A stretch of DNA of 64,000 nt. Origin: a virus. The DNA lies in the IMG/VR virus record IMGVR_UViG_3300035703_000034, positions 32,001-96,000 of that record. The stretch is one strand, 5' to 3'. Positions 3,556-60,744 of this stretch are shown here, piece by piece; position 1 is the first letter of the stretch, and every line of letters begins with the position of its first letter. The notes beneath the pieces were generated by a model, which had not been told where the DNA came from, did not search any database, and saw only the letters and a program-made list of their open reading frames with translations. Both the position numbers and the translations under genes were made by a program.

Positions 3556-4635
3556 TCAGACGTGGTGGAAGCGCGTCATCTTCCAGAGCCGCTGCCAGAG
3601 CAGCACCGTCAAGCGATCGTTGAGCTCGAAGCGATCGGCGTGACCGCCGCGCAGCCACACCGCCGGCAACGCACCGAGCGAATTATATGCCCAGTCGACG
3701 AGATCACACCCGCCGCGCTGCTGGAGCCACCAGCCGGCAAACGCCTCCGGCAGCGCCGGCAGCGGCACCGGCGCCCCGTCGCGGGGGTGAACGACGAGCT
3801 GCTGCGCGTGCCGCACCTCGGCCACGGCCTCGGCGAGCGCGGCGTCGAGCTGTCCGATAAACGCCCCCTGCTCGTCCCAGCCCTCCGGCACGGGCACCAG
3901 CCAGCTGCGCAGCGGCACGCCGAGCTCCTTCTCCAGCCACTGCAGCAGGGCCACCTGCTCGAGCGGCGGCAGCACCGACAGCAGGCTGCGCACCTCGCTG
4001 GCGATCGCCTCGCGGGAGCGGGTGCTCTTGAGCAGCGCCACGATGCGCTTGGCGATGTCCGCCTGGACCCGCTCGTCCGGCGCGACGACGTGGAAGCCCT
4101 CCGCCACCAGCTGCGCCATGTGCACGAGCCACGTCACGTCGTCGCTCGCCAGGCGCACCTGCCGCGTGCTGAAGGTCAGGCGCCGCAGCGTCTCGGGGCA
4201 CAGCTGCAGGCAGGCGACCGCCGCCGGGTCGGTGCAGACGCGCCACTCGTCGTCCGTGAGCACGACAAACGGTCGCTTGACGTCGAGCCGGTGGCCGCCG
4301 AACAGCCCCGTGCGGTGATCGCGATCCCGCCCGCGGCCGTACACGTACGCGCGCCCCGGCCCGAGGTGCGTGTCGCTCTCGAGCTCCCGGACCGTCGCGA
4401 AGCCGGGGACATGGCGGCTCGTGTAGGGGAACACCAGCCCGCTCGTGTCCGGCAGGCGCGCGAAGAAGCGCGCCGAGCATGCGCGCTCAAACGTGCCCTT
4501 GCTCGGGTAGAAGCCCAGCCCCAGCTGCGCGCGATCGGGCACGGTGACGAGCTGGTCGAGCGCGAGGGCGAGCGCCTCGTCGCGCGCCGCCTCGAGCCAG
4601 GGGCCGAGGTCCTTGACCTTGGGGTCAGCCGGCAT
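3556..4635 (-). CDS. Hypothetical protein, possibly a degenerate DnaG/TOPRIM-like fold
   Basis: LGFYP, LVFPY, GLFG, FVVLTDD segments loosely recall the primase core; weak. Confidence 0.35.
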   Translation of the reverse strand: MPADPKVKDLGPWLEAARDEALALALDQLVTVPDRAQLGLGFYPSKGTFERACSARFFARLPDTSGLVFPYTSRHVPGFATVRELESDTHLGPGRAYVYGRGRDRDHRTGLFGGHRLDVKRPFVVLTDDEWRVCTDPAAVACLQLCPETLRRLTFSTRQVRLASDDVTWLVHMAQLVAEGFHVVAPDERVQADIAKRIVALLKSTRSREAIASEVRSLLSVLPPLEQVALLQWLEKELGVPLRSWLVPVPEGWDEQGAFIGQLDAALAEAVAEVRHAQQLVVHPRDGAPVPLPALPEAFAGWWLQQRGGCDLVDWAYNSLGALPAVWLRGGHADRFELNDRLTVLLWQRLWKMTRFHHV

Positions 4636-5302
4636 GGAACTGGTGCAGCGTCAGCTTCGGGTCGATCGGCGGGGCCTGGTGCAGCGCCTGGCGCCGGGCC
4701 TCCATCAGGTAGTGGGCGCGGTGCGCGCCCTCCGCGAGCTGCCCGAGGCTCGCGCCGGCCGTCATGGCGTAGACGGGCGTGTGCGGACCGAAGCGCTGGC
4801 GCATCGCGATGCCGAGCGCCGCCCCGGCCAGCGCCCCGCCCCAGGTGCCGGGGTGGACCGTGACGAGGAACGGGTTCTCGTTGACGTAGCGGCGCTCCAG
4901 CGCGTGGTCCGCGAAGGCGCCCGACACCGGCGGCGTGACGGCGATGAACTCGAGCGGGACGTTGCTGGCCTGCTTCTGCTGCCCGATCAGGTGGTAGTAG
5001 CGGTGCAGGCCCTCGAGCCCCATGCCCGTCGCCAGGCCCACGCCCATGCCCACCAGCGGGTGGCCGCCCGCCAGCTGGCCGAGGCCGGCGCCTACCAGCC
5101 CGCCGCCGTACGCGACCGGGTGCAGCATGCTCATCACCGGGTGCTTGGTCTGGTAGTCGGCCTCGAGCCGATCGTCGTGAAACCGCTCGCCCGGCATGTG
5201 CCAGTCCGTGATCCAGGCCGCCTCCGGCATGGCGCTGGCGAGCTTTGAAAGCGCCGGGTGGATAATCGAAGTGGAAGGTCCAGGACGCATGGCAGGCATC
5301 AT
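4625..5302 (-). CDS. Glycine-zipper protein with KxA motifs
   Basis: KLAS and KQAS each precede a unit containing HP...GGxLxGAxLG. Confidence 0.6.
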   Translation of the reverse strand: MMPAMRPGPSTSIIHPALSKLASAMPEAAWITDWHMPGERFHDDRLEADYQTKHPVMSMLHPVAYGGGLVGAGLGQLAGGHPLVGMGVGLATGMGLEGLHRYYHLIGQQKQASNVPLEFIAVTPPVSGAFADHALERRYVNENPFLVTVHPGTWGGALAGAALGIAMRQRFGPHTPVYAMTAGASLGQLAEGAHRAHYLMEARRQALHQAPPIDPKLTLHQFHAG

Positions 5303-41674: not shown

Positions 41675-42016
41675 ATGGCCAACAAAGACACGCGAGACAC
41701 GGTCAGACAATTCCTCGCGGCCCGCAAGCTCTACCGGAAGCAGCTGGAGCAGAAGCTGTTCCCGGCATACACCAGTGTGGTAACACCCGCGCTCCATAAT
41801 ACTACCAAACTGGTAAGCGCGGCAAAGAAAACCAGCGACCCGATGCTTCAGGCCATCGAGCAGCAGGCCATGGACCTGATGCTGGCCTCCCAGCGGGCCG
41901 TCGACCTGCGCAAGAAGACCTTCAGGAACTACGTGAACGAGTCACGCGCCGGCAGGATCCACTATGATTTCTACGAGGACGCGCGGCAGCAGCGCTACGA
42001 GAGGGGGGTGCTCTGA
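41675..42016 (+). CDS. Hypothetical protein
   Basis: AGGAGG SD; coupled to the gp25-like gene. Confidence 0.55.
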   Translation: MANKDTRDTVRQFLAARKLYRKQLEQKLFPAYTSVVTPALHNTTKLVSAAKKTSDPMLQAIEQQAMDLMLASQRAVDLRKKTFRNYVNESRAGRIHYDFYEDARQQRYERGVL

Positions 42017-42468
42017 TGGCGACCTTCGGGTTCTCCGCGGGGGCGTTCAAGACCCTGGAGCCCGGCACGTACCAGATCGACCTGGCGCGCGGCTTTGCCG
42101 AGGCGCGCTTCGCGTCGGACATGGAGAAGCTGGCCTTCGAGGTGTGCTACGGCCTGATGACGACGCGGGGCAGCATCCCGTTCGACCCCACGTTCGGGAG
42201 CCTGCTGCCGGTCGCCATCGGGCAGTACGCGAGCAACGAGGTCGCGGAGCTGCAGGCGTTCGTCGCCGGTGAGATTGCCCACGTCGAGGCGATGATTAAG
42301 GAGAGGCAGGCGTCTGCCGTGCTGCCGGCCGCCCAGCGGCTGGAGGCGCTGGACGCGGTCGAGGTGCGGGTCCGGCCGGCGGAGCAGCAAGTCGACGTCC
42401 TGCTCACCATCACCAACGGGCTGGGCGAGTCGGTGGGGTTCTCGGTGTCTCAAGCGGTGGACAGCTAG
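42016..42468 (+). CDS. Baseplate wedge gp25/GpW-like protein
   Basis: LMTTRGSIPFDPTFGSLL motif. Confidence 0.8.
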   Translation: MATFGFSAGAFKTLEPGTYQIDLARGFAEARFASDMEKLAFEVCYGLMTTRGSIPFDPTFGSLLPVAIGQYASNEVAELQAFVAGEIAHVEAMIKERQASAVLPAAQRLEALDAVEVRVRPAEQQVDVLLTITNGLGESVGFSVSQAVDS

Positions 42469-42471
42469 GTC

Positions 42472-43944
42472 ATGGCGGTCACGGAAACGATTCTTCAGCA
42501 GGCGGAGACCTTCATCGTCACCGCCATCACCGAGGCCTTCGCGGCCGAGGGCGACAGCATTGACCTGCGGCCGGGCACGCCGCAGTACGACCTGTTTGTG
42601 CGCGGCTTCCTCGCCGTGGTCGCGCAGATCGTCGACCAGCTGCAGCAGGCCCAGCGCAAGGTGACGGCGCTGTCGGCCACGGAGCTGACGGACGCGGAGC
42701 TCGCGGCGCTCGGGGCGCGCTTCGGCGTGAGCCGGCGCGTGGGCGCGACCGCCCAGGGCACGGTGCGCGTGAAGTTCCGCGAGCGGGTGGCCGTCACGCT
42801 GACGACGAGCGACGCCTTTCTGGCCGGGGACCAGACCTACTACCCGACCGAGGACGTCGCGCTGCTGGCCGACGAGCTGACGCAAGAACCTGTCTTGAAC
42901 TACTGGTACGTCAACGTGCCGCTGATGGCGGCCACCAACGGGACGGCCAGCAACACGGGGGCCGGCACGGCCTTCACGTGCGCCAAGCTCGCGGGCGACC
43001 CCGCGCTCATCGAGGCGGTGGCGATCACGCCGCTGTCGGGCGGCCTGGACCAGGAGGACGCGACGGCCTACTTCGACCGGTTGCAGGCCGCCCCCTTGAT
43101 CCGAAACCTGGTGAGCCGCAAGTCGATCGACGCGGTGCTGATGGGCGAGTTCGCGGGCGTCATCGAGCGGCTGCTGGTGGTGGGCTACCAGGAGCCCGAG
43201 ATGCAGCGCGATCGCCTCGAGGTCGTCGACCCCGTGCTCGGCCCGATGACCATGCACGTGGGCGGGCACACGGACATCTACGTCAAGACGCCCATCCGGC
43301 GCGAGACGGTGGAGTTCACGGTCTCGCCCGGCAACTACGTGATCGACCTCACGGACTACCGCGCGGTGCTGAAGGTCCACAACGTGACCCTCAAGGGGAA
43401 CGGCGACGTCAGCCCGTACTTCGAGCTGCGCGTGGCCGACCCGGCGCTGCGCTACTCGGCACTCGACACCGTGCAGCTGTTCGTCGACCCCGGCCTCTCC
43501 GAGGAGACCATCCAGGTCGACCTCTCGTACGCGCCGGACGTCGTGAGCATCCATGCGTACGTCAACGGCGACGAGCAGCGCATCACGAACGCCAACACGC
43601 TCGTGCGCCACTTCGTGCCCGTCTGGCTCGGGGCCGTCATCTACGTGGCGGGCGACGACGCCGCGATCGCGCAGGCGAACGGCAACATCGCGGCCTACCT
43701 GGACGGCCTCGCCAACGGCGCGCCCGTCGTCGTCAGCAAGCTGACGGAGGCCATCTACCAGGGCGGGGCGCTGAACGTGCTGCAGGACTACGACCTCATC
43801 GCCCAGATCATCTACAACGACGGCACGTTGCTCGAGCGCACGGCGGACGAGGTGCTGACGATTGCGGACGACCTGCCCAAGGGCTTCTCGCAGCGGGTGG
43901 CGACCTACCTGAACGAGGGCGTGACCCTCGTGCAGCTGGGGTAG
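42472..43944 (+). CDS. Baseplate J-like protein
   Basis: R..GATAQGTV, GTASN, GGLDQED..YFDR motifs; follows the gp25-like gene. Confidence 0.8.
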   Translation: MAVTETILQQAETFIVTAITEAFAAEGDSIDLRPGTPQYDLFVRGFLAVVAQIVDQLQQAQRKVTALSATELTDAELAALGARFGVSRRVGATAQGTVRVKFRERVAVTLTTSDAFLAGDQTYYPTEDVALLADELTQEPVLNYWYVNVPLMAATNGTASNTGAGTAFTCAKLAGDPALIEAVAITPLSGGLDQEDATAYFDRLQAAPLIRNLVSRKSIDAVLMGEFAGVIERLLVVGYQEPEMQRDRLEVVDPVLGPMTMHVGGHTDIYVKTPIRRETVEFTVSPGNYVIDLTDYRAVLKVHNVTLKGNGDVSPYFELRVADPALRYSALDTVQLFVDPGLSEETIQVDLSYAPDVVSIHAYVNGDEQRITNANTLVRHFVPVWLGAVIYVAGDDAAIAQANGNIAAYLDGLANGAPVVVSKLTEAIYQGGALNVLQDYDLIAQIIYNDGTLLERTADEVLTIADDLPKGFSQRVATYLNEGVTLVQLG

Positions 43945-43948
43945 GCCC

Positions 43949-44329
43949 ATGCGCGACTACCTGGCCGTCCAGCACGCGCGCGAGAAAGACGGCGCCCCGC
44001 CCGGCGAGTACCTCGCCACCTACGAGCGGATGGGGCGCGCCAAAGGCGATCGCCTGCAGCGGACCCTCGTGCTGACGGACGTGACCACGCCCGCGGGCGA
44101 CCCGGTGACGGACCACGTCTGGCTCATCCACACGAAGGAGTGGCAGGGTGTGGCGCCGGGGTCGCGGGTGCGCTTCACGGCCCCCGCCCATGCCTACTTC
44201 AAGGACCGTGGCCGGGGGCTGATGGGCCGGGTGCCCAACCGGGAGATGGACTACGGCTTCTCCCGGCCCCTGGAAGTCAAGGCTGCCAGCGCGTATCAGG
44301 CCTATCTGGCCTGGGTCGGAGGCTACTAA
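43949..44329 (+). CDS. Hypothetical protein
   Basis: 126-aa ORF with good codon bias. Confidence 0.6.
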   Translation: MRDYLAVQHAREKDGAPPGEYLATYERMGRAKGDRLQRTLVLTDVTTPAGDPVTDHVWLIHTKEWQGVAPGSRVRFTAPAHAYFKDRGRGLMGRVPNREMDYGFSRPLEVKAASAYQAYLAWVGGY

Positions 44330-44330
44330 A

Positions 44331-44750
44331 ATGAACCCCTATTTCGCCTATATATCTATGAAGGCCGCTTCTGACTTTTCAGACGCGCTGGACCTTTACG
44401 TGGTGGCCCACGACGCCCCGCTGAGCGAGCACATGCGCGCCCAGAACCGGGGCTACATCCCGCTGCACATGCTGAAGGACAAGGGGCGCGACAGTCACCT
44501 CGTCTACGTGCACCGGATGAGCTACAACCCGGCGATGCACCTGAAGTCGGCCGACCCAGCAAAGTTCCACGCCCTGGTGCGCACGCACCTGGGCGGCCCC
44601 CCGGTCGTCGTGCCCGCCGCCCCGGCGGCCCTCCCCCCACCCCCCGGGGTGGGGGTGGCCCCGGGTGGGCAGACCGCTGTGGCGGTCCCCCCGGTGCCCG
44701 TGAAGCCGGTGGTTCCGGTTGCACCCCCTCCCCCGGGGGTGGGGGGCTAA
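44331..44750 (+). CDS. Small protein with KxA leader and Pro-rich tail
   Basis: Begins MNPYFAYISMKAAS; GGAGG SD. Confidence 0.55.
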   Translation: MNPYFAYISMKAASDFSDALDLYVVAHDAPLSEHMRAQNRGYIPLHMLKDKGRDSHLVYVHRMSYNPAMHLKSADPAKFHALVRTHLGGPPVVVPAAPAALPPPPGVGVAPGGQTAVAVPPVPVKPVVPVAPPPPGVGG

Positions 44751-44780
44751 AAAAGACCCCCGAAACCCCTATATATACTT

Positions 44781-45342
44781 GACCCCCACATTAGCCCTTG
44801 AACAAAGGCTGGTGTGGGGTTCTTGGTTTGAGTCGGGCCTGCAGCCCGGCGTCCGTGGAAACGGAAGGCTCGCTGTGCGAGGCCGGCGAGGGTGCCATAC
44901 GGACGGCACCCGTTGACCCGGTCTTTCAGAGTTAAGGGGAACCTCGCCACTGTTTGGTCAGGCGAGGCTGCGAGAATGACCACCCCACCGTCCCGGCTTT
45001 GGGACGTTAAGCGGATACGCGACCGCGAAGGCCTGTCCCCTCGGGGGCAGAAGACTGGCATTCCCGAACCGGCCCCACGGATGGGTGGGCCGGCTGCCAG
45101 ACACATCTAGGGAGCTGCCGGGGTTTCCCGGCCCATGTCCCGCAAGCGACCACCTCTCCGTGGTGCGGGATAGTAACGTGCGGAGCGCTCCGCACGGCTG
45201 ACGGTCGCAAGCCCCTATCGCGTGGGCAGTACGCGAGAGGTCTGGTCACGTGGACAGGCATCACGTGACGAACCCGACGCAGGGGTTGCCTGCGCACGTT
45301 CCCCACCCGCCCCCGGTCCGCTCTTGCGGCCGGGGGCTTTTT
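44781..45342 (+). ncRNA. Putative large structured non-coding RNA (~560 nt)
   Basis: No convincing ORF; well over a dozen consecutive hairpins with G-U pairs on +, two candidate pseudoknots, TATACT upstream, terminator at the end. Confidence 0.6.
45309..45342 (+). terminator. Intrinsic terminator
   Basis: GCCCCCGG...CCGGGGGC followed by TTTTT. Confidence 0.7.
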
Positions 45343-45367
45343 GCGGTTCCGACCGCAGGAGGTTCAA

Positions 45368-45586
45368 ATGGACGGGCTTCAACTGCAAAAGGAACTGGAA
45401 GAGTTCGCCGAAGGACACGCCCAGCTCGAATTTGCAATTAACAAGATCAAGATCGGTTACAACGAGCAGCGCCTTCTGGCGCGACTCGACGCCGAGCAGG
45501 CGGCGACCGAGGCCGCCGGCGAGGCCGGGCGGCTGGAGTGCCGCTTGGCCGGCGGCCGCGTGGCCCCGGCCCCTCTGGCGGACTGA
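45368..45586 (+). CDS. Small coiled-coil hypothetical protein
   Basis: AGGAGG SD before ATG 45368. Confidence 0.55.
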   Translation: MDGLQLQKELEEFAEGHAQLEFAINKIKIGYNEQRLLARLDAEQAATEAAGEAGRLECRLAGGRVAPAPLAD

Positions 45587-45697
45587 AGTCCGCCAGAGGC
45601 CCGCTCCGCAGAAGGAAAACTGCGTAACAAACCCGCCCCAGCCGGGCGTGACCGGGGACCCGCAAGGGCGAGACCGGAGGCGCGTTGGTATCAAAAA

Positions 45698-45758
45698 CTG
45701 ACATCCAGGCTGCGTTAGCCTGCTGATGATGGCCCCGTCGCGGGGGCCGAAATGTCAG
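45698..45758 (+). ncRNA. Type III hammerhead ribozyme
   Basis: CUGACAUC / stem I CAGGC-GCCUG / CUGAUGA / stem II GGCCCC-GGGGCC / GAAA UGUCAG; full core and three stems; predicted cut after C45705. Confidence 0.9.
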
Positions 45759-45815
45759 AAGTCTCGTGCTGTTTCGACGGCACGCAGAGGGCTGAAGGCC
45801 CGGGGAGAAAAGACC

Positions 45816-46175
45816 GTGAAGACCACGAATCGAGCGGAAGACCTGTACCAGGCGGGACAGTATCTGGGAACGATCACTGTCGTCGAGGGCAAGGAGGTAA
45901 TCCTCCAGCCCTGGACCTACCGCCTCCGCTACGGCGGGGGCAAGCACGAGATCTCGTACGCCGTGAAGCGGGAGACAATTCCCGTCCTCCGGTGGGACGG
46001 CGACGTCATCGGGCGCAAGCCCACGGGCGTCGTGCAGGGGGTCTACCCCTTCGGGCCAGACTACGTCTCGGGCGGCCGGGCCCGTCTAGAGGAGCTCCTG
46101 GCGGCCCCCGAGACCCACGACCAGGAGTGCTACTGCCACTTGCACAAGGGCGCGGAGCGCTTGCTGAGGGTCTAG
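45816..46175 (+). CDS. Hypothetical early protein
   Basis: GGAG SD, GTG 45816. Confidence 0.6.
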   Translation: MKTTNRAEDLYQAGQYLGTITVVEGKEVILQPWTYRLRYGGGKHEISYAVKRETIPVLRWDGDVIGRKPTGVVQGVYPFGPDYVSGGRARLEELLAAPETHDQECYCHLHKGAERLLRV

Positions 46176-46367
46176 CCAACCGCCCGGCGACACGCACAGG
46201 TCCAGCCGTCTACCCGAGAAGGGCACAGACAGACGGCCCTCGTGCGTGTCGCCACCTCAACCCAGCCGGGGGTCAAGCCGGCGCGTCGGAAGTGGTCATG
46301 TCCGACGTCCCCAGTGTCAGGGGTTTGATGACACTATCACCTGCCGCTACGGCGGCAAGGAGGTCTG

Positions 46368-46853
46368 ATGAAGACCGAATCCATGGGCGCCCCCCTGCAC
46401 GGCGTGTGCCCGTCGGACCCCGAAGGGGTCTACCTCGGCCGCGCCACCTGGTGCGGGGTCGAGGTGGACCTCTGGTTCTGGGCCACGGCCTGGGACCGGG
46501 GGTCCATCGGGTACCGCCACGGCACCCGGGGGGACGAGTACGGGTCGATGCCCGTGCGCGGCCTCCAGGAGGCCGAGATGAGCCAGGCGCTGAAGGCCAC
46601 CCCGGCCTTCGAGGCCTTCTGCCTGAAGATCAACAGGCAGAAGTCGGTCCTTGGCGAGGGCTACGTCCTCGCCGAGGGCACCGTCTGGCGGAAGGCTCTC
46701 ACGGCCGCCCGCCAGACGGGCCTGATCACGGAGCTGTCGCTCCAGGAGTCGGCGGACTTCTGGGCGGCCGGCGTGCTCCAGTGGGATGACCCCACCGGAG
46801 CGTCGCTGCGCTCGGCTTACGCCGAGGCGCGTTCCGCGATCGCAAGCCTGTAG
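46368..46853 (+). CDS. Hypothetical early protein
   Basis: AAGGAGG SD preceded by a hairpin. Confidence 0.65.
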   Translation: MKTESMGAPLHGVCPSDPEGVYLGRATWCGVEVDLWFWATAWDRGSIGYRHGTRGDEYGSMPVRGLQEAEMSQALKATPAFEAFCLKINRQKSVLGEGYVLAEGTVWRKALTAARQTGLITELSLQESADFWAAGVLQWDDPTGASLRSAYAEARSAIASL

Positions 46854-47026
46854 GAACCCCCGCGCCGTGACGGCGCGTGAGTGGGGAGCTGTGCCGAACC
46901 CATAAGGCACGGTGAGCCCACACGTCGCAAACAGGCCGTAGGGGCGCCTGGTCAAGTCCGACGAAGCCCCAACGGACCCTCACCCGCGCGTGAGGGGGAC
47001 TGGCCCCCCAATGGGCCGAGGTCAAC

Positions 47027-47303: not shown

Positions 47304-47395
47304 CACCCTCCAAGGTGGGACGTGTTTGTTTCACATCTCTTCACTCCATTGCGAGTGATCAGATGTGAAGCAGACGCGTCCCACCTTGGAGGGTG
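47304..47395 (+). repeat. 35-bp inverted repeat (long RNA hairpin)
   Basis: Arms 47304-47338 and 47361-47395 differ at only three positions, all giving U-G pairs on +. Confidence 0.9.
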
Positions 47396-47479
47396 TGGAT
47401 TACCGTTGCTTTTCCTTTAGCCCCGCTGAGCGTTCAGCCGGGGCGCAGTTGCCGTTCCGACGGCAGAAAGGAGTCCGAC

Positions 47480-47986
47480 GTGGACATCCTCCAGAACAAC
47501 CCCACCACCTGGTCCAAGTGGACCTCGGTCGTCCTGACCACCGGCGTGCCGGGCGCCGGCAAAAGCACCCTCGCCGCCCGGCTCGTGGCCGAGTTCGGCT
47601 ACGAGCAGCTGGAGCTCGACGAGCTCCGGGCCGAGCTCGGCGACCGGGCCGACCAGTCCCTCACCCCGGCCGCCGTCGCGCTGCGCGACGAGCGGCTCGC
47701 GGCGGCCATCGCGGCGGGTCGCAAGGTCGTCGTGAGCGACACCAACGCCCACTTCCCGTTCCGGGTGGCGCTCATCCGGGACATCCTCAGTCTCGGCGTC
47801 CCGGCGGACGAGATCGCCATCGTCCACTTCAACGCGGACGTGGACGAGGCCAAGCGCCGCAACCGGGGGCGCGCCAGCGAGGTGCCCGAGGCGGTCATCG
47901 ACCGGATGGCCGCGGCGCTCGAGGCCGCGCAGCCCTCGCTGGACGCGGAGCTCTACGGGCTCCAGTACCACGAGACGGAGCTCTAA
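47480..47986 (+). CDS. Polynucleotide 5'-kinase-like P-loop protein (T4 PNK kinase domain / AAA_33)
   Basis: VVLTTGVPGAGKST, LDELR, VVVSDTN, RRNRGR, VPEAVIDRM. Confidence 0.75.
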   Translation: MDILQNNPTTWSKWTSVVLTTGVPGAGKSTLAARLVAEFGYEQLELDELRAELGDRADQSLTPAAVALRDERLAAAIAAGRKVVVSDTNAHFPFRVALIRDILSLGVPADEIAIVHFNADVDEAKRRNRGRASEVPEAVIDRMAAALEAAQPSLDAELYGLQYHETEL

Positions 47987-60652: not shown

Positions 60653-60744
60653 CGCGCGGTGGATAATCTCTCCATAGACCCGCCAAGGCTATGCGCGCAA
60701 GCGTATCCTCAAACTGGCGGGTCCCTTTTTGTCTGGAGGCAGAG

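Follow-up and report, generated by a model that had tools for sequence, protein, structure and literature searches.

Gene context of the locus

The DNA analysed in this study, here referred to as the window, is a stretch of 64,000 nt that covers bases 32001-96000 of a 106,380-base IMG/VR viral contig (68% G+C; CheckV completeness ~51%). Its source is an uncultured GC-rich tailed phage. GC3 frame analysis and family scans place the genes on the minus strand up to 41657 and on the plus strand from 41675, and family scans identified a baseplate wedge-like and a baseplate J-like protein on the plus strand at 42016-43944. After a gene that ends at 44750, the frame plot contains ~590 nt without coding signal, and a terminator closes this stretch. 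The elements that precede the hammerhead on its 5' side begin ~920 nt upstream of it and are, in order, an AT-rich patch, ~350 nt of ORF-free RNA, an HDV-like ribozyme candidate, the terminator, and a 72-aa ORF (Table 1). The hammerhead itself is located 3' of the baseplate genes, in a spacer of 229 nt that separates the putative 72-aa ORF from a 119-aa ORF, and the genes that flank it on both sides share its plus strand.

Table 1. Coordinates of the features at the hammerhead locus, in window positions
Feature	Position	Strand	Sequence or structure	Basis
ORF-free structured RNA	44790-45136	+	~350 nt, hairpin-rich	no coding signal in frame plot; fold z -1.97
HDV-like self-cleaving ribozyme candidate	45137-45208	+	predicted cut 5' of G45137	RF02682 match, hand pairing, descriptor
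HDV-like P1	45137-45143/45165-45171	+	7 bp, hallmark G-U at base	
HDV-like P2	45146-45151/45203-45208	+	perfect 6-bp pseudoknot GCGACC/GGUCGC	
HDV-like P3	45152-45154/45162-45164	+		hand pairing
HDV-like P4	45177-45196	+	long	
HDV-like J4/2, putative catalytic residue	C45198	+		sequence
Intrinsic terminator, strong	45309-45342	+	12-bp GC-rich hairpin (45309-45337), then UUUUU	terminator scan, sequence
Putative 72-aa ORF	45369-45586	+	AGGAGG ribosome-binding site 6 nt upstream; enclosed by the two predicted cut sites	
Type III hammerhead ribozyme motif	45698-45758	+		sequence, minimum-energy fold, descriptor, shuffles, class model
Stem III	45698-45704/45752-45758	+	CUGACAU/AUGUCAG, 7 bp, A15.1-U16.1 included; open	
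C17, cleavage-site residue	45705	+		sequence
Stem I	45706-45711/45717-45722	+	CAGGCU/AGCCUG, 6 bp, 7th G-U pair possible; loop GCGUU	
Core strand CUGAUGA	45723-45729	+		sequence
Inserted U after A9	45730	+		sequence
Stem II	45731-45736/45743-45748	+	GGCCCC/GGGGCC, 6 bp, G10.1-C11.1 present; loop GUCGCG	
GAA core strand	45749-45751	+	followed by A45752, paired with U45704 (A15.1-U16.1)	
Leader of downstream product	45759-45815	+	two further hairpins, then GGGGAG ribosome-binding site of the 119-aa gene	fold of predicted 3' product
Downstream gene, 119 aa	45816-46175	+	GTG start	GC3 0.89 from 45816; exact product in public protein collection

The AT-rich patch, TATATATACTTGAC at 44770-44784, is unique within the window; it could not be called as a promoter, and a sigma-70 scan of 44300-46400 returned no site. 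The ORF-free RNA that follows contains no tRNA and, besides the HDV-like match, no Rfam family. The terminator sits between the two ribozymes, 26 nt ahead of the ATG of the 72-aa ORF. This ORF has its stop codon in the loop of a 12-bp hairpin (45573-45600), and its longer, TTG-start form (45341-45586) has codon-position GC values of 0.78/0.41/0.77; it has no family match and no homologue, and the gene therefore stays uncertain.

The hammerhead motif is non-coding, as the GC3 bias begins at 45816 and the public gene call corresponds to the 119-aa form. On the same two grounds, the ATG inside CUGAUGA (45726) was ruled out as the start of the downstream gene. The 119-aa protein belongs to no known family according to the family scans. 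Further downstream, a PNK-like kinase (47393-47986), a pentapeptide-repeat protein, and a RadC-like protein are encoded. Directly 5' of the kinase gene, a near-perfect long inverted repeat is visible in the sequence at 47304-47395 (+). A match to the abiF RNA was also recorded at 60679-60722 (+), below threshold (27.1 bits vs a gathering score of 37; E 1.3).

The hammerhead motif and its inserted-base subclass

A complete type III hammerhead is present at 45698-45758 on the plus strand. Its C3-U4-G5-A6-N7-G8-A9 strand agrees with the hammerhead consensus without substitution of any core position, and so do G12-A13-A14, the A15.1-U16.1 pair, and the non-G residue 17 (C45705). Both the fold and the descriptor place three helices around this core; stems I and II each end in a loop, and stem III is open. 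The sequence gives 7, 6, and 6 bp for stems III, I, and II, respectively, and this replaces the lengths of 5, 6, and 7 bp in the original prediction. The strict consensus is departed from at one point: U45730 is inserted, so that A9 does not directly precede the G10.1-C11.1 pair, which itself is present. Cleavage is assigned to the position after 45705 because standard hammerhead numbering puts C17 there. The original prediction of a type III hammerhead, with its coordinates, core, extra U, and cleavage after 45705, is thus borne out by the motif, the fold, the chance controls, and a class model.

For the isolated 61-mer, the three-way junction is the minimum-energy structure (-29.5 kcal/mol, z -2.98). 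A contact between GCG of loop I and CGC of loop II had also been proposed; the 3 complementary bases do exist, but they are no better than chance, as 19% of loop shuffles gave equal or better complementarity. A hammerhead descriptor (CUGANGA, an optional inserted base, GAAA, U-H, and three stems) found a single match on both strands of the 106-kb contig, namely 45698-45758, and the type I and type II descriptors gave zero matches across the same contig. According to 300 dinucleotide-preserving shuffles, the chance expectation per genome is 0.03 at stems of ≥3 bp and 0.003 at stems of ≥4 bp; at stems of ≥5 bp, the 300 shuffled contigs gave zero hits.

Rfam is silent at this site. A scan of the whole window returned no family at gathering score, and whole-window scans at gathering level and at E-value level revealed no further ribozyme. 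RF00008 aligned the hammerhead core only when it was given a 77-nt stretch; the core was then correctly aligned, at 14.4 bits vs a gathering score of 48.5. A scan of viral contigs for the pattern CUGAUGA-N-GGCC...GGCCGAAA yielded at least 122 matches, and 113 of the 122 matches listed complete a full hammerhead (95 type I and 18 type III). Of the 95 distinct hammerheads among the matches listed, 90 have U at the inserted position. As at least 95 distinct phage hammerheads carry this insertion, the extra U is the mark of an abundant phage subclass, not a defect. None of 12 clean phage type III hammerheads with the insertion reached the RF00008 gathering score. The low score is therefore not evidence against the site, and the silence of Rfam is a property of the RF00008 model, not of the hammerhead. 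This means that the Rfam type III model misses a whole phage subclass with a base inserted after A9, and that such ribozymes consequently go unannotated in viral contigs. Among the type I hammerheads, a large family that combines the junction CCCGC-CUGAUGA-U-GGCC with a short open stem I was observed in many IMG/VR contigs (loci L001-L116), with at least 79 distinct sequences.

Covariance model R1, derived from the 12 clean type III hammerheads as seeds, with the window excluded, matches 45700-45756 at 37.5 bits (E 2e-8), a score that is partly obtained by construction because the seeds were gathered with a pattern taken from the core and stem II of the window motif; likewise, the covariation in the seed alignment is partly produced by choosing sequences that form stems. 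The runner-up match of R1 scores 16 bits, lies inside a gene, and is without GAAA.

Relatives of the phage were searched for at several levels. The 119-aa protein has no match in viral contigs or metagenome contigs and finds only itself in a set of 5.8 billion proteins, while the baseplate J-like protein has no match in viral contigs. A blastn search with 44300-47000 against phage records gave no match. A stem II-specific hammerhead pattern found 23 loci in metagenomes, with 0 copies of the window ribozyme among them, and a 20-nt exact word had 4 matches in genome contigs, apparently in coding sequence and none with a surrounding hammerhead. Because no relative of the phage or of the flanking genes was found, the hammerhead locus is without conservation or covariation evidence.

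The cleavage triplet of the hammerhead is AUC. Among the 95 distinct phage hammerheads in the matches listed, GUC occurs 89 times, AUA 3 times, GUA twice, CUC once, and AUC not at all. AUC is also described as essentially absent from natural hammerheads; in the ELVd hammerhead, it is among the fastest triplets in purified RNA and the slowest during transcription, because AUC pairs with GAU of the core (Carbonell et al. 2006, PMC1636495). Folds of the nascent transcript of the window locus predict the same trap: once the core is made, CAUC, i.e., AUC together with C45702, pairs with GAUG and thereby extends stem I. In these predicted folds, the 5' strand of stem III is tied up in a GUUGGU/ACUGAC hairpin, and the 3' strand of stem III is able to pair with CUGAUG. 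In a native context of 231 nt, the hammerhead-constrained fold has an energy of -94.6 kcal/mol vs -94.9 kcal/mol for the optimum without stem III, in a nearest-neighbour model that ignores the tertiary contacts favouring the active hammerhead.

The AUC triplet and the competing folds of nearly equal energy are the unusual points of this hammerhead, and on these modelled folds its cleavage may be slow or conditional. It could be argued that the ribozyme is real and that AUC and the flanking hairpins serve as a delay or switch on downstream expression, instead of constitutive processing. The measured behaviour of AUC during and after transcription, its absence from the other phage hammerheads listed, the trap, the two sequestered strands of stem III, and a gap of only 0.3 kcal/mol between the inactive and active folds all agree with such a slow cutter. 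This alternative is nevertheless considered unlikely, as the tertiary contacts left out of the calculation favour the active form, no ligand-binding or protein-binding element is evident, and a single example has no relatives to show that the trap was selected. As a natural AUC hammerhead, the motif would be well suited to testing the co-transcriptional trap model.

Inactive hammerhead-like RNAs have been listed (Perreault et al. 2011, PMC3088659), and a non-cleaving look-alike, i.e., a chance or decayed motif that is only an intergenic hairpin cluster, would fit the unusual triplet, the inserted core base, the loop-loop contact that is no better than chance, the RF00008 score far below gathering, and the lack of an orthologue that shows conservation. 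Such a look-alike is judged highly improbable given that no core position is substituted, that the insertion is shared with at least 95 distinct phage hammerheads, that the chance expectation is at most 0.003 per genome, and that the class model matches at E 2e-8. Moreover, AUC is catalytically excellent in purified RNA (PMC1636495), and a second ribozyme lies nearby, as it does in comparison loci.

The HDV-like candidate partner and the proposed RNA processing

The second ribozyme is the HDV-like candidate upstream. The descriptor and hand pairing reveal the nested double pseudoknot P1/P2/P3/P1.1/P4, in which P1.1 is only possible. RF02682 (HDV ribozyme of F. prausnitzii) matches 45137-45208 at 30.6 bits, below its gathering score of 44 and with a model that leaves P2 unscored; the E-value is 0.001 for the 661-nt ORF-free stretch, which was scanned at E-value level, and 0.097 for the whole window, and in the window the match is the best of any family. 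The HDV-like descriptor was anchored on the P3/L3 core, a 14-base pattern that has 118 occurrences in viral contigs, the remaining 116 of which were tested. Seven of these 116 other loci passed (5 distinct sequences), with P1 and P2 that differ and are compensated; these pairs were taken from the descriptor table, since a MAFFT alignment of the loci was too poor for pair counting. RF02682 scores 75-81 bits in 4 of the 7 passing loci, and one locus directly follows a tRNA, as in theta ribozymes (PMC10879173).

Two further observations were made on HDV-like ribozymes in viral contigs. Three RF02682 ribozymes of 75-81 bits are present on one strand within 4.6 kb at L169:10024-14617 (-). At L165:2266-2370 (-), an HDV-like fold that scores below the Rfam gathering score lies directly 3' of a tRNA-Cys in an array of seven tRNAs, an arrangement that is the one described for theta ribozymes (PMC10879173).

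The occurrence of two ribozymes at one locus was compared with the 12 loci of inserted-base type III hammerheads. Five of these carry another ribozyme that is Rfam-certified, at a distance of 0.5-2.4 kb and on the same strand; it is a type II hammerhead in 4 and a twister-sister in 1. All four loci that were examined have one or two small ORFs between the paired ribozymes. A naive ORF-based analysis of the genes around the comparison hammerheads gave results too noisy for use, owing to the GC-rich DNA. Locus L034 combines a type III hammerhead (4277-4331, -) with a twister-sister (4894-4973, -; 75.6 bits) ~560 nt apart, which flank a 182-aa ORF; this spacing is very close to that of the window pair. 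L009, L042, L078, and L095 each contain a type III hammerhead missed by Rfam and, on the same strand at a distance of 0.6-2.4 kb, a type II hammerhead that is Rfam-certified. A same-strand ribozyme pair around small genes is thus an ordinary arrangement. Hammerheads of prophages are known to flank single genes or short gene blocks, polycistronic constructs of ~2 kb were shown to be cleaved, and processing into operon-length or gene-length mRNAs was proposed (Perreault et al. 2011, PMC3088659). In general, bacterial self-cleaving ribozymes cluster with each other, and their role is largely unknown (reviewed in PMC6765202).

Taken together, it is probable that a genuine type III hammerhead in the 229-nt spacer cuts itself between C45705 and C45706 and so separates the mRNA of the downstream accessory genes from the upstream RNA. 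The analysis establishes the motif, its fold, how rarely it would arise by chance, its match to a class of phage hammerheads, and the repeated presence of same-strand ribozyme pairs within this class; actual cleavage is inferred. Upon transcription of the plus strand through the spacer, the RNA would fold into the three-helix junction and cut itself at this site. The upstream RNA would then end in ...CUGACAUC with a 2',3'-cyclic phosphate, whereas the downstream RNA would carry a 5'-OH on C45706, where the stem I hairpin starts, so that the accessory-gene mRNA (45816 onward) becomes separate from the RNA that precedes it. Once cleavage has taken place, CUGAUG could be re-paired by the stem III 3' strand, a step that would free the 5' fragment and keep the ends from being ligated again. 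The predicted 3' cleavage product starts within the stem I hairpin and has zero unpaired 5' nucleotides. Bacterial 5'-end-dependent RNases favour a single-stranded 5'-monophosphate end, and a base-paired 5'-OH end would presumably slow the decay of the downstream RNA. Of the 5'-OH, hairpin-protected mRNA that the original prediction put forward, the hairpin at the predicted 5' end is thus retained, and the stabilising effect is plausible.

The hammerhead would be an internal processing site, because the baseplate genes, the ORF-free RNA, the HDV-like candidate, the terminator, and the 72-aa ORF are all located upstream of it. It had initially been placed at the head of an early gene array; this view is not supported, as the upstream genes are baseplate genes and no tool gave an early or late assignment. 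The release of an upstream RNA, on the other hand, becomes more concrete through the second predicted cut, that of the HDV-like candidate 569 nt upstream. Cleavage by HDV-like ribozymes takes place at the 5' end of the ribozyme itself. Between the predicted cuts at 45136/45137 and 45705/45706 lie the HDV-like candidate, the terminator, and the 72-aa ORF. If both took place, three pieces would result, namely, I) a leader RNA of ~350 nt; II) a 569-nt piece with the terminator and the 72-aa ORF; and III) the downstream mRNA; these could differ in stability and translation. The RNA of 44790-45136 would be set free and would carry a 2',3'-cyclic phosphate at its end. Counted against this processing reading are the strong terminator between the ribozymes and the absence of a detected promoter. 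Counted against it as the best explanation are also the AUC triplet, the near-equal alternative fold, the partly built-in R1 score, and the absence of relatives.

The ends themselves might have a use. A 5'-OH and a 2',3'-cyclic phosphate are the established chemistry of both ribozyme classes, and the two cuts would yield one RNA with exactly the ends that RtcB joins. The ribozyme-made ends could accordingly feed end-healing or joining, with the phage PNK-like kinase phosphorylating the 5'-OH and thereby timing the decay of the downstream mRNA or a host RtcB-type ligase circularising the 569-nt piece. The kinase is a kinase-only protein of 197 aa that is encoded 1.6 kb downstream on the same strand; Pfam AAA_33 matches it at E 4e-21 and PHROG 505 'polynucleotide kinase' at E 4e-16, and among its solved relatives the PNKP kinase domain ranks best (E 5e-5). 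Phage PNK-like kinases, however, have other known roles, e.g., tRNA repair; the 106-kb contig, which is ~51% complete, has no RtcB or RNA ligase family; by eye, no complementarity joins the two ends of the 569-nt piece; and a terminator lies inside that piece. Spliced or circular products of phage hammerhead pairs were also looked for and none were found (Perreault et al. 2011, PMC3088659). This use of the ends is considered very unlikely. A combined scheme, in which the HDV-like ribozyme and the hammerhead excise a 569-nt RNA (45137-45705) with the 72-aa ORF, its ends serve for circularisation by RtcB or as a decay timer set by the PNK, and AUC delays the cut, is regarded as extremely improbable. 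If it were true, joining by an RtcB-type ligase would mean a circular phage mRNA, and action of the kinase would mean a built-in timer of RNA decay.

Comparison with known systems

The window hammerhead, for which internal processing between upstream RNA and accessory genes is the preferred reading, adds one clean example of a self-cleaving ribozyme in a phage; our understanding of how hammerheads work is unchanged by it. It represents a further case of the intergenic phage hammerheads, often paired with another ribozyme, that have already been described (PMC3088659). What is noteworthy is its natural AUC triplet, its membership of a subclass missed by Rfam, and its HDV-like partner: a mixed pair of HDV-like ribozyme and hammerhead brackets a tiny ORF together with a terminator, where the tail-baseplate genes give way to accessory genes.

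The phage and prophage hammerheads of Perreault et al. (PMC3088659) resemble the window hammerhead in their intact core, co-directional phage genes, and possible loop-loop pairing, and in having a further ribozyme within ~0.6 kb on the same strand that flanks a small gene. They differ in that the window partner is HDV-like instead of a second hammerhead, that the triplet is AUC and not GUC, that the flanked piece contains a terminator, and that no relatives are known. Among the HDV-like ribozymes of gut bacteria and phages, drz-Fprau (RF02682) and the theta ribozymes (PMC10879173) have the same nested arrangement of two pseudoknots as the HDV-like candidate and the same conserved P3/L3 core, whereas the candidate differs in its score (30.6 vs 44 bits), its long P4, the lack of an upstream tRNA, and its hammerhead partner.

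The 12 inserted-base type III hammerheads from IMG/VR have the same topology, 6-bp stem I, CUGAUGA-U-GGCC junction, G10.1-C11.1 pair, and GAAA strand as the window hammerhead and, like it, all stay below the RF00008 gathering score. In contrast, all 12 carry GUC with C-G at 15.2-16.2, where the window has AUC with U-A; their stem II is 4-5 bp long (6 in the window) and their loop I 6-10 nt (5 in the window), and several have a loop I/loop II complementarity of 4 bp (3 bp in the window). The viroid, satellite, and eukaryotic hammerheads of RF00008 (Hammerhead_3) align with the window motif position for position in core and topology; the window motif differs from them by the inserted U, other stem and loop sequences, a DNA-phage context, and a score of 14.4 vs 48.5 bits.

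Lastly, two viroid hammerheads provide counterparts for the two deviations from the common pattern. The CChMVd (+) hammerhead cleaves despite one extra nucleotide (A10) that likewise separates A9 from G10.1, and the ELVd-(+)-AUC mutant, with the same triplet as the window, is fast after transcription and slow during it through pairing with the core (PMC1636495). Both belong to viroid RNAs, which replicate by a rolling circle, and AUC was engineered there, whereas in the window it is natural.
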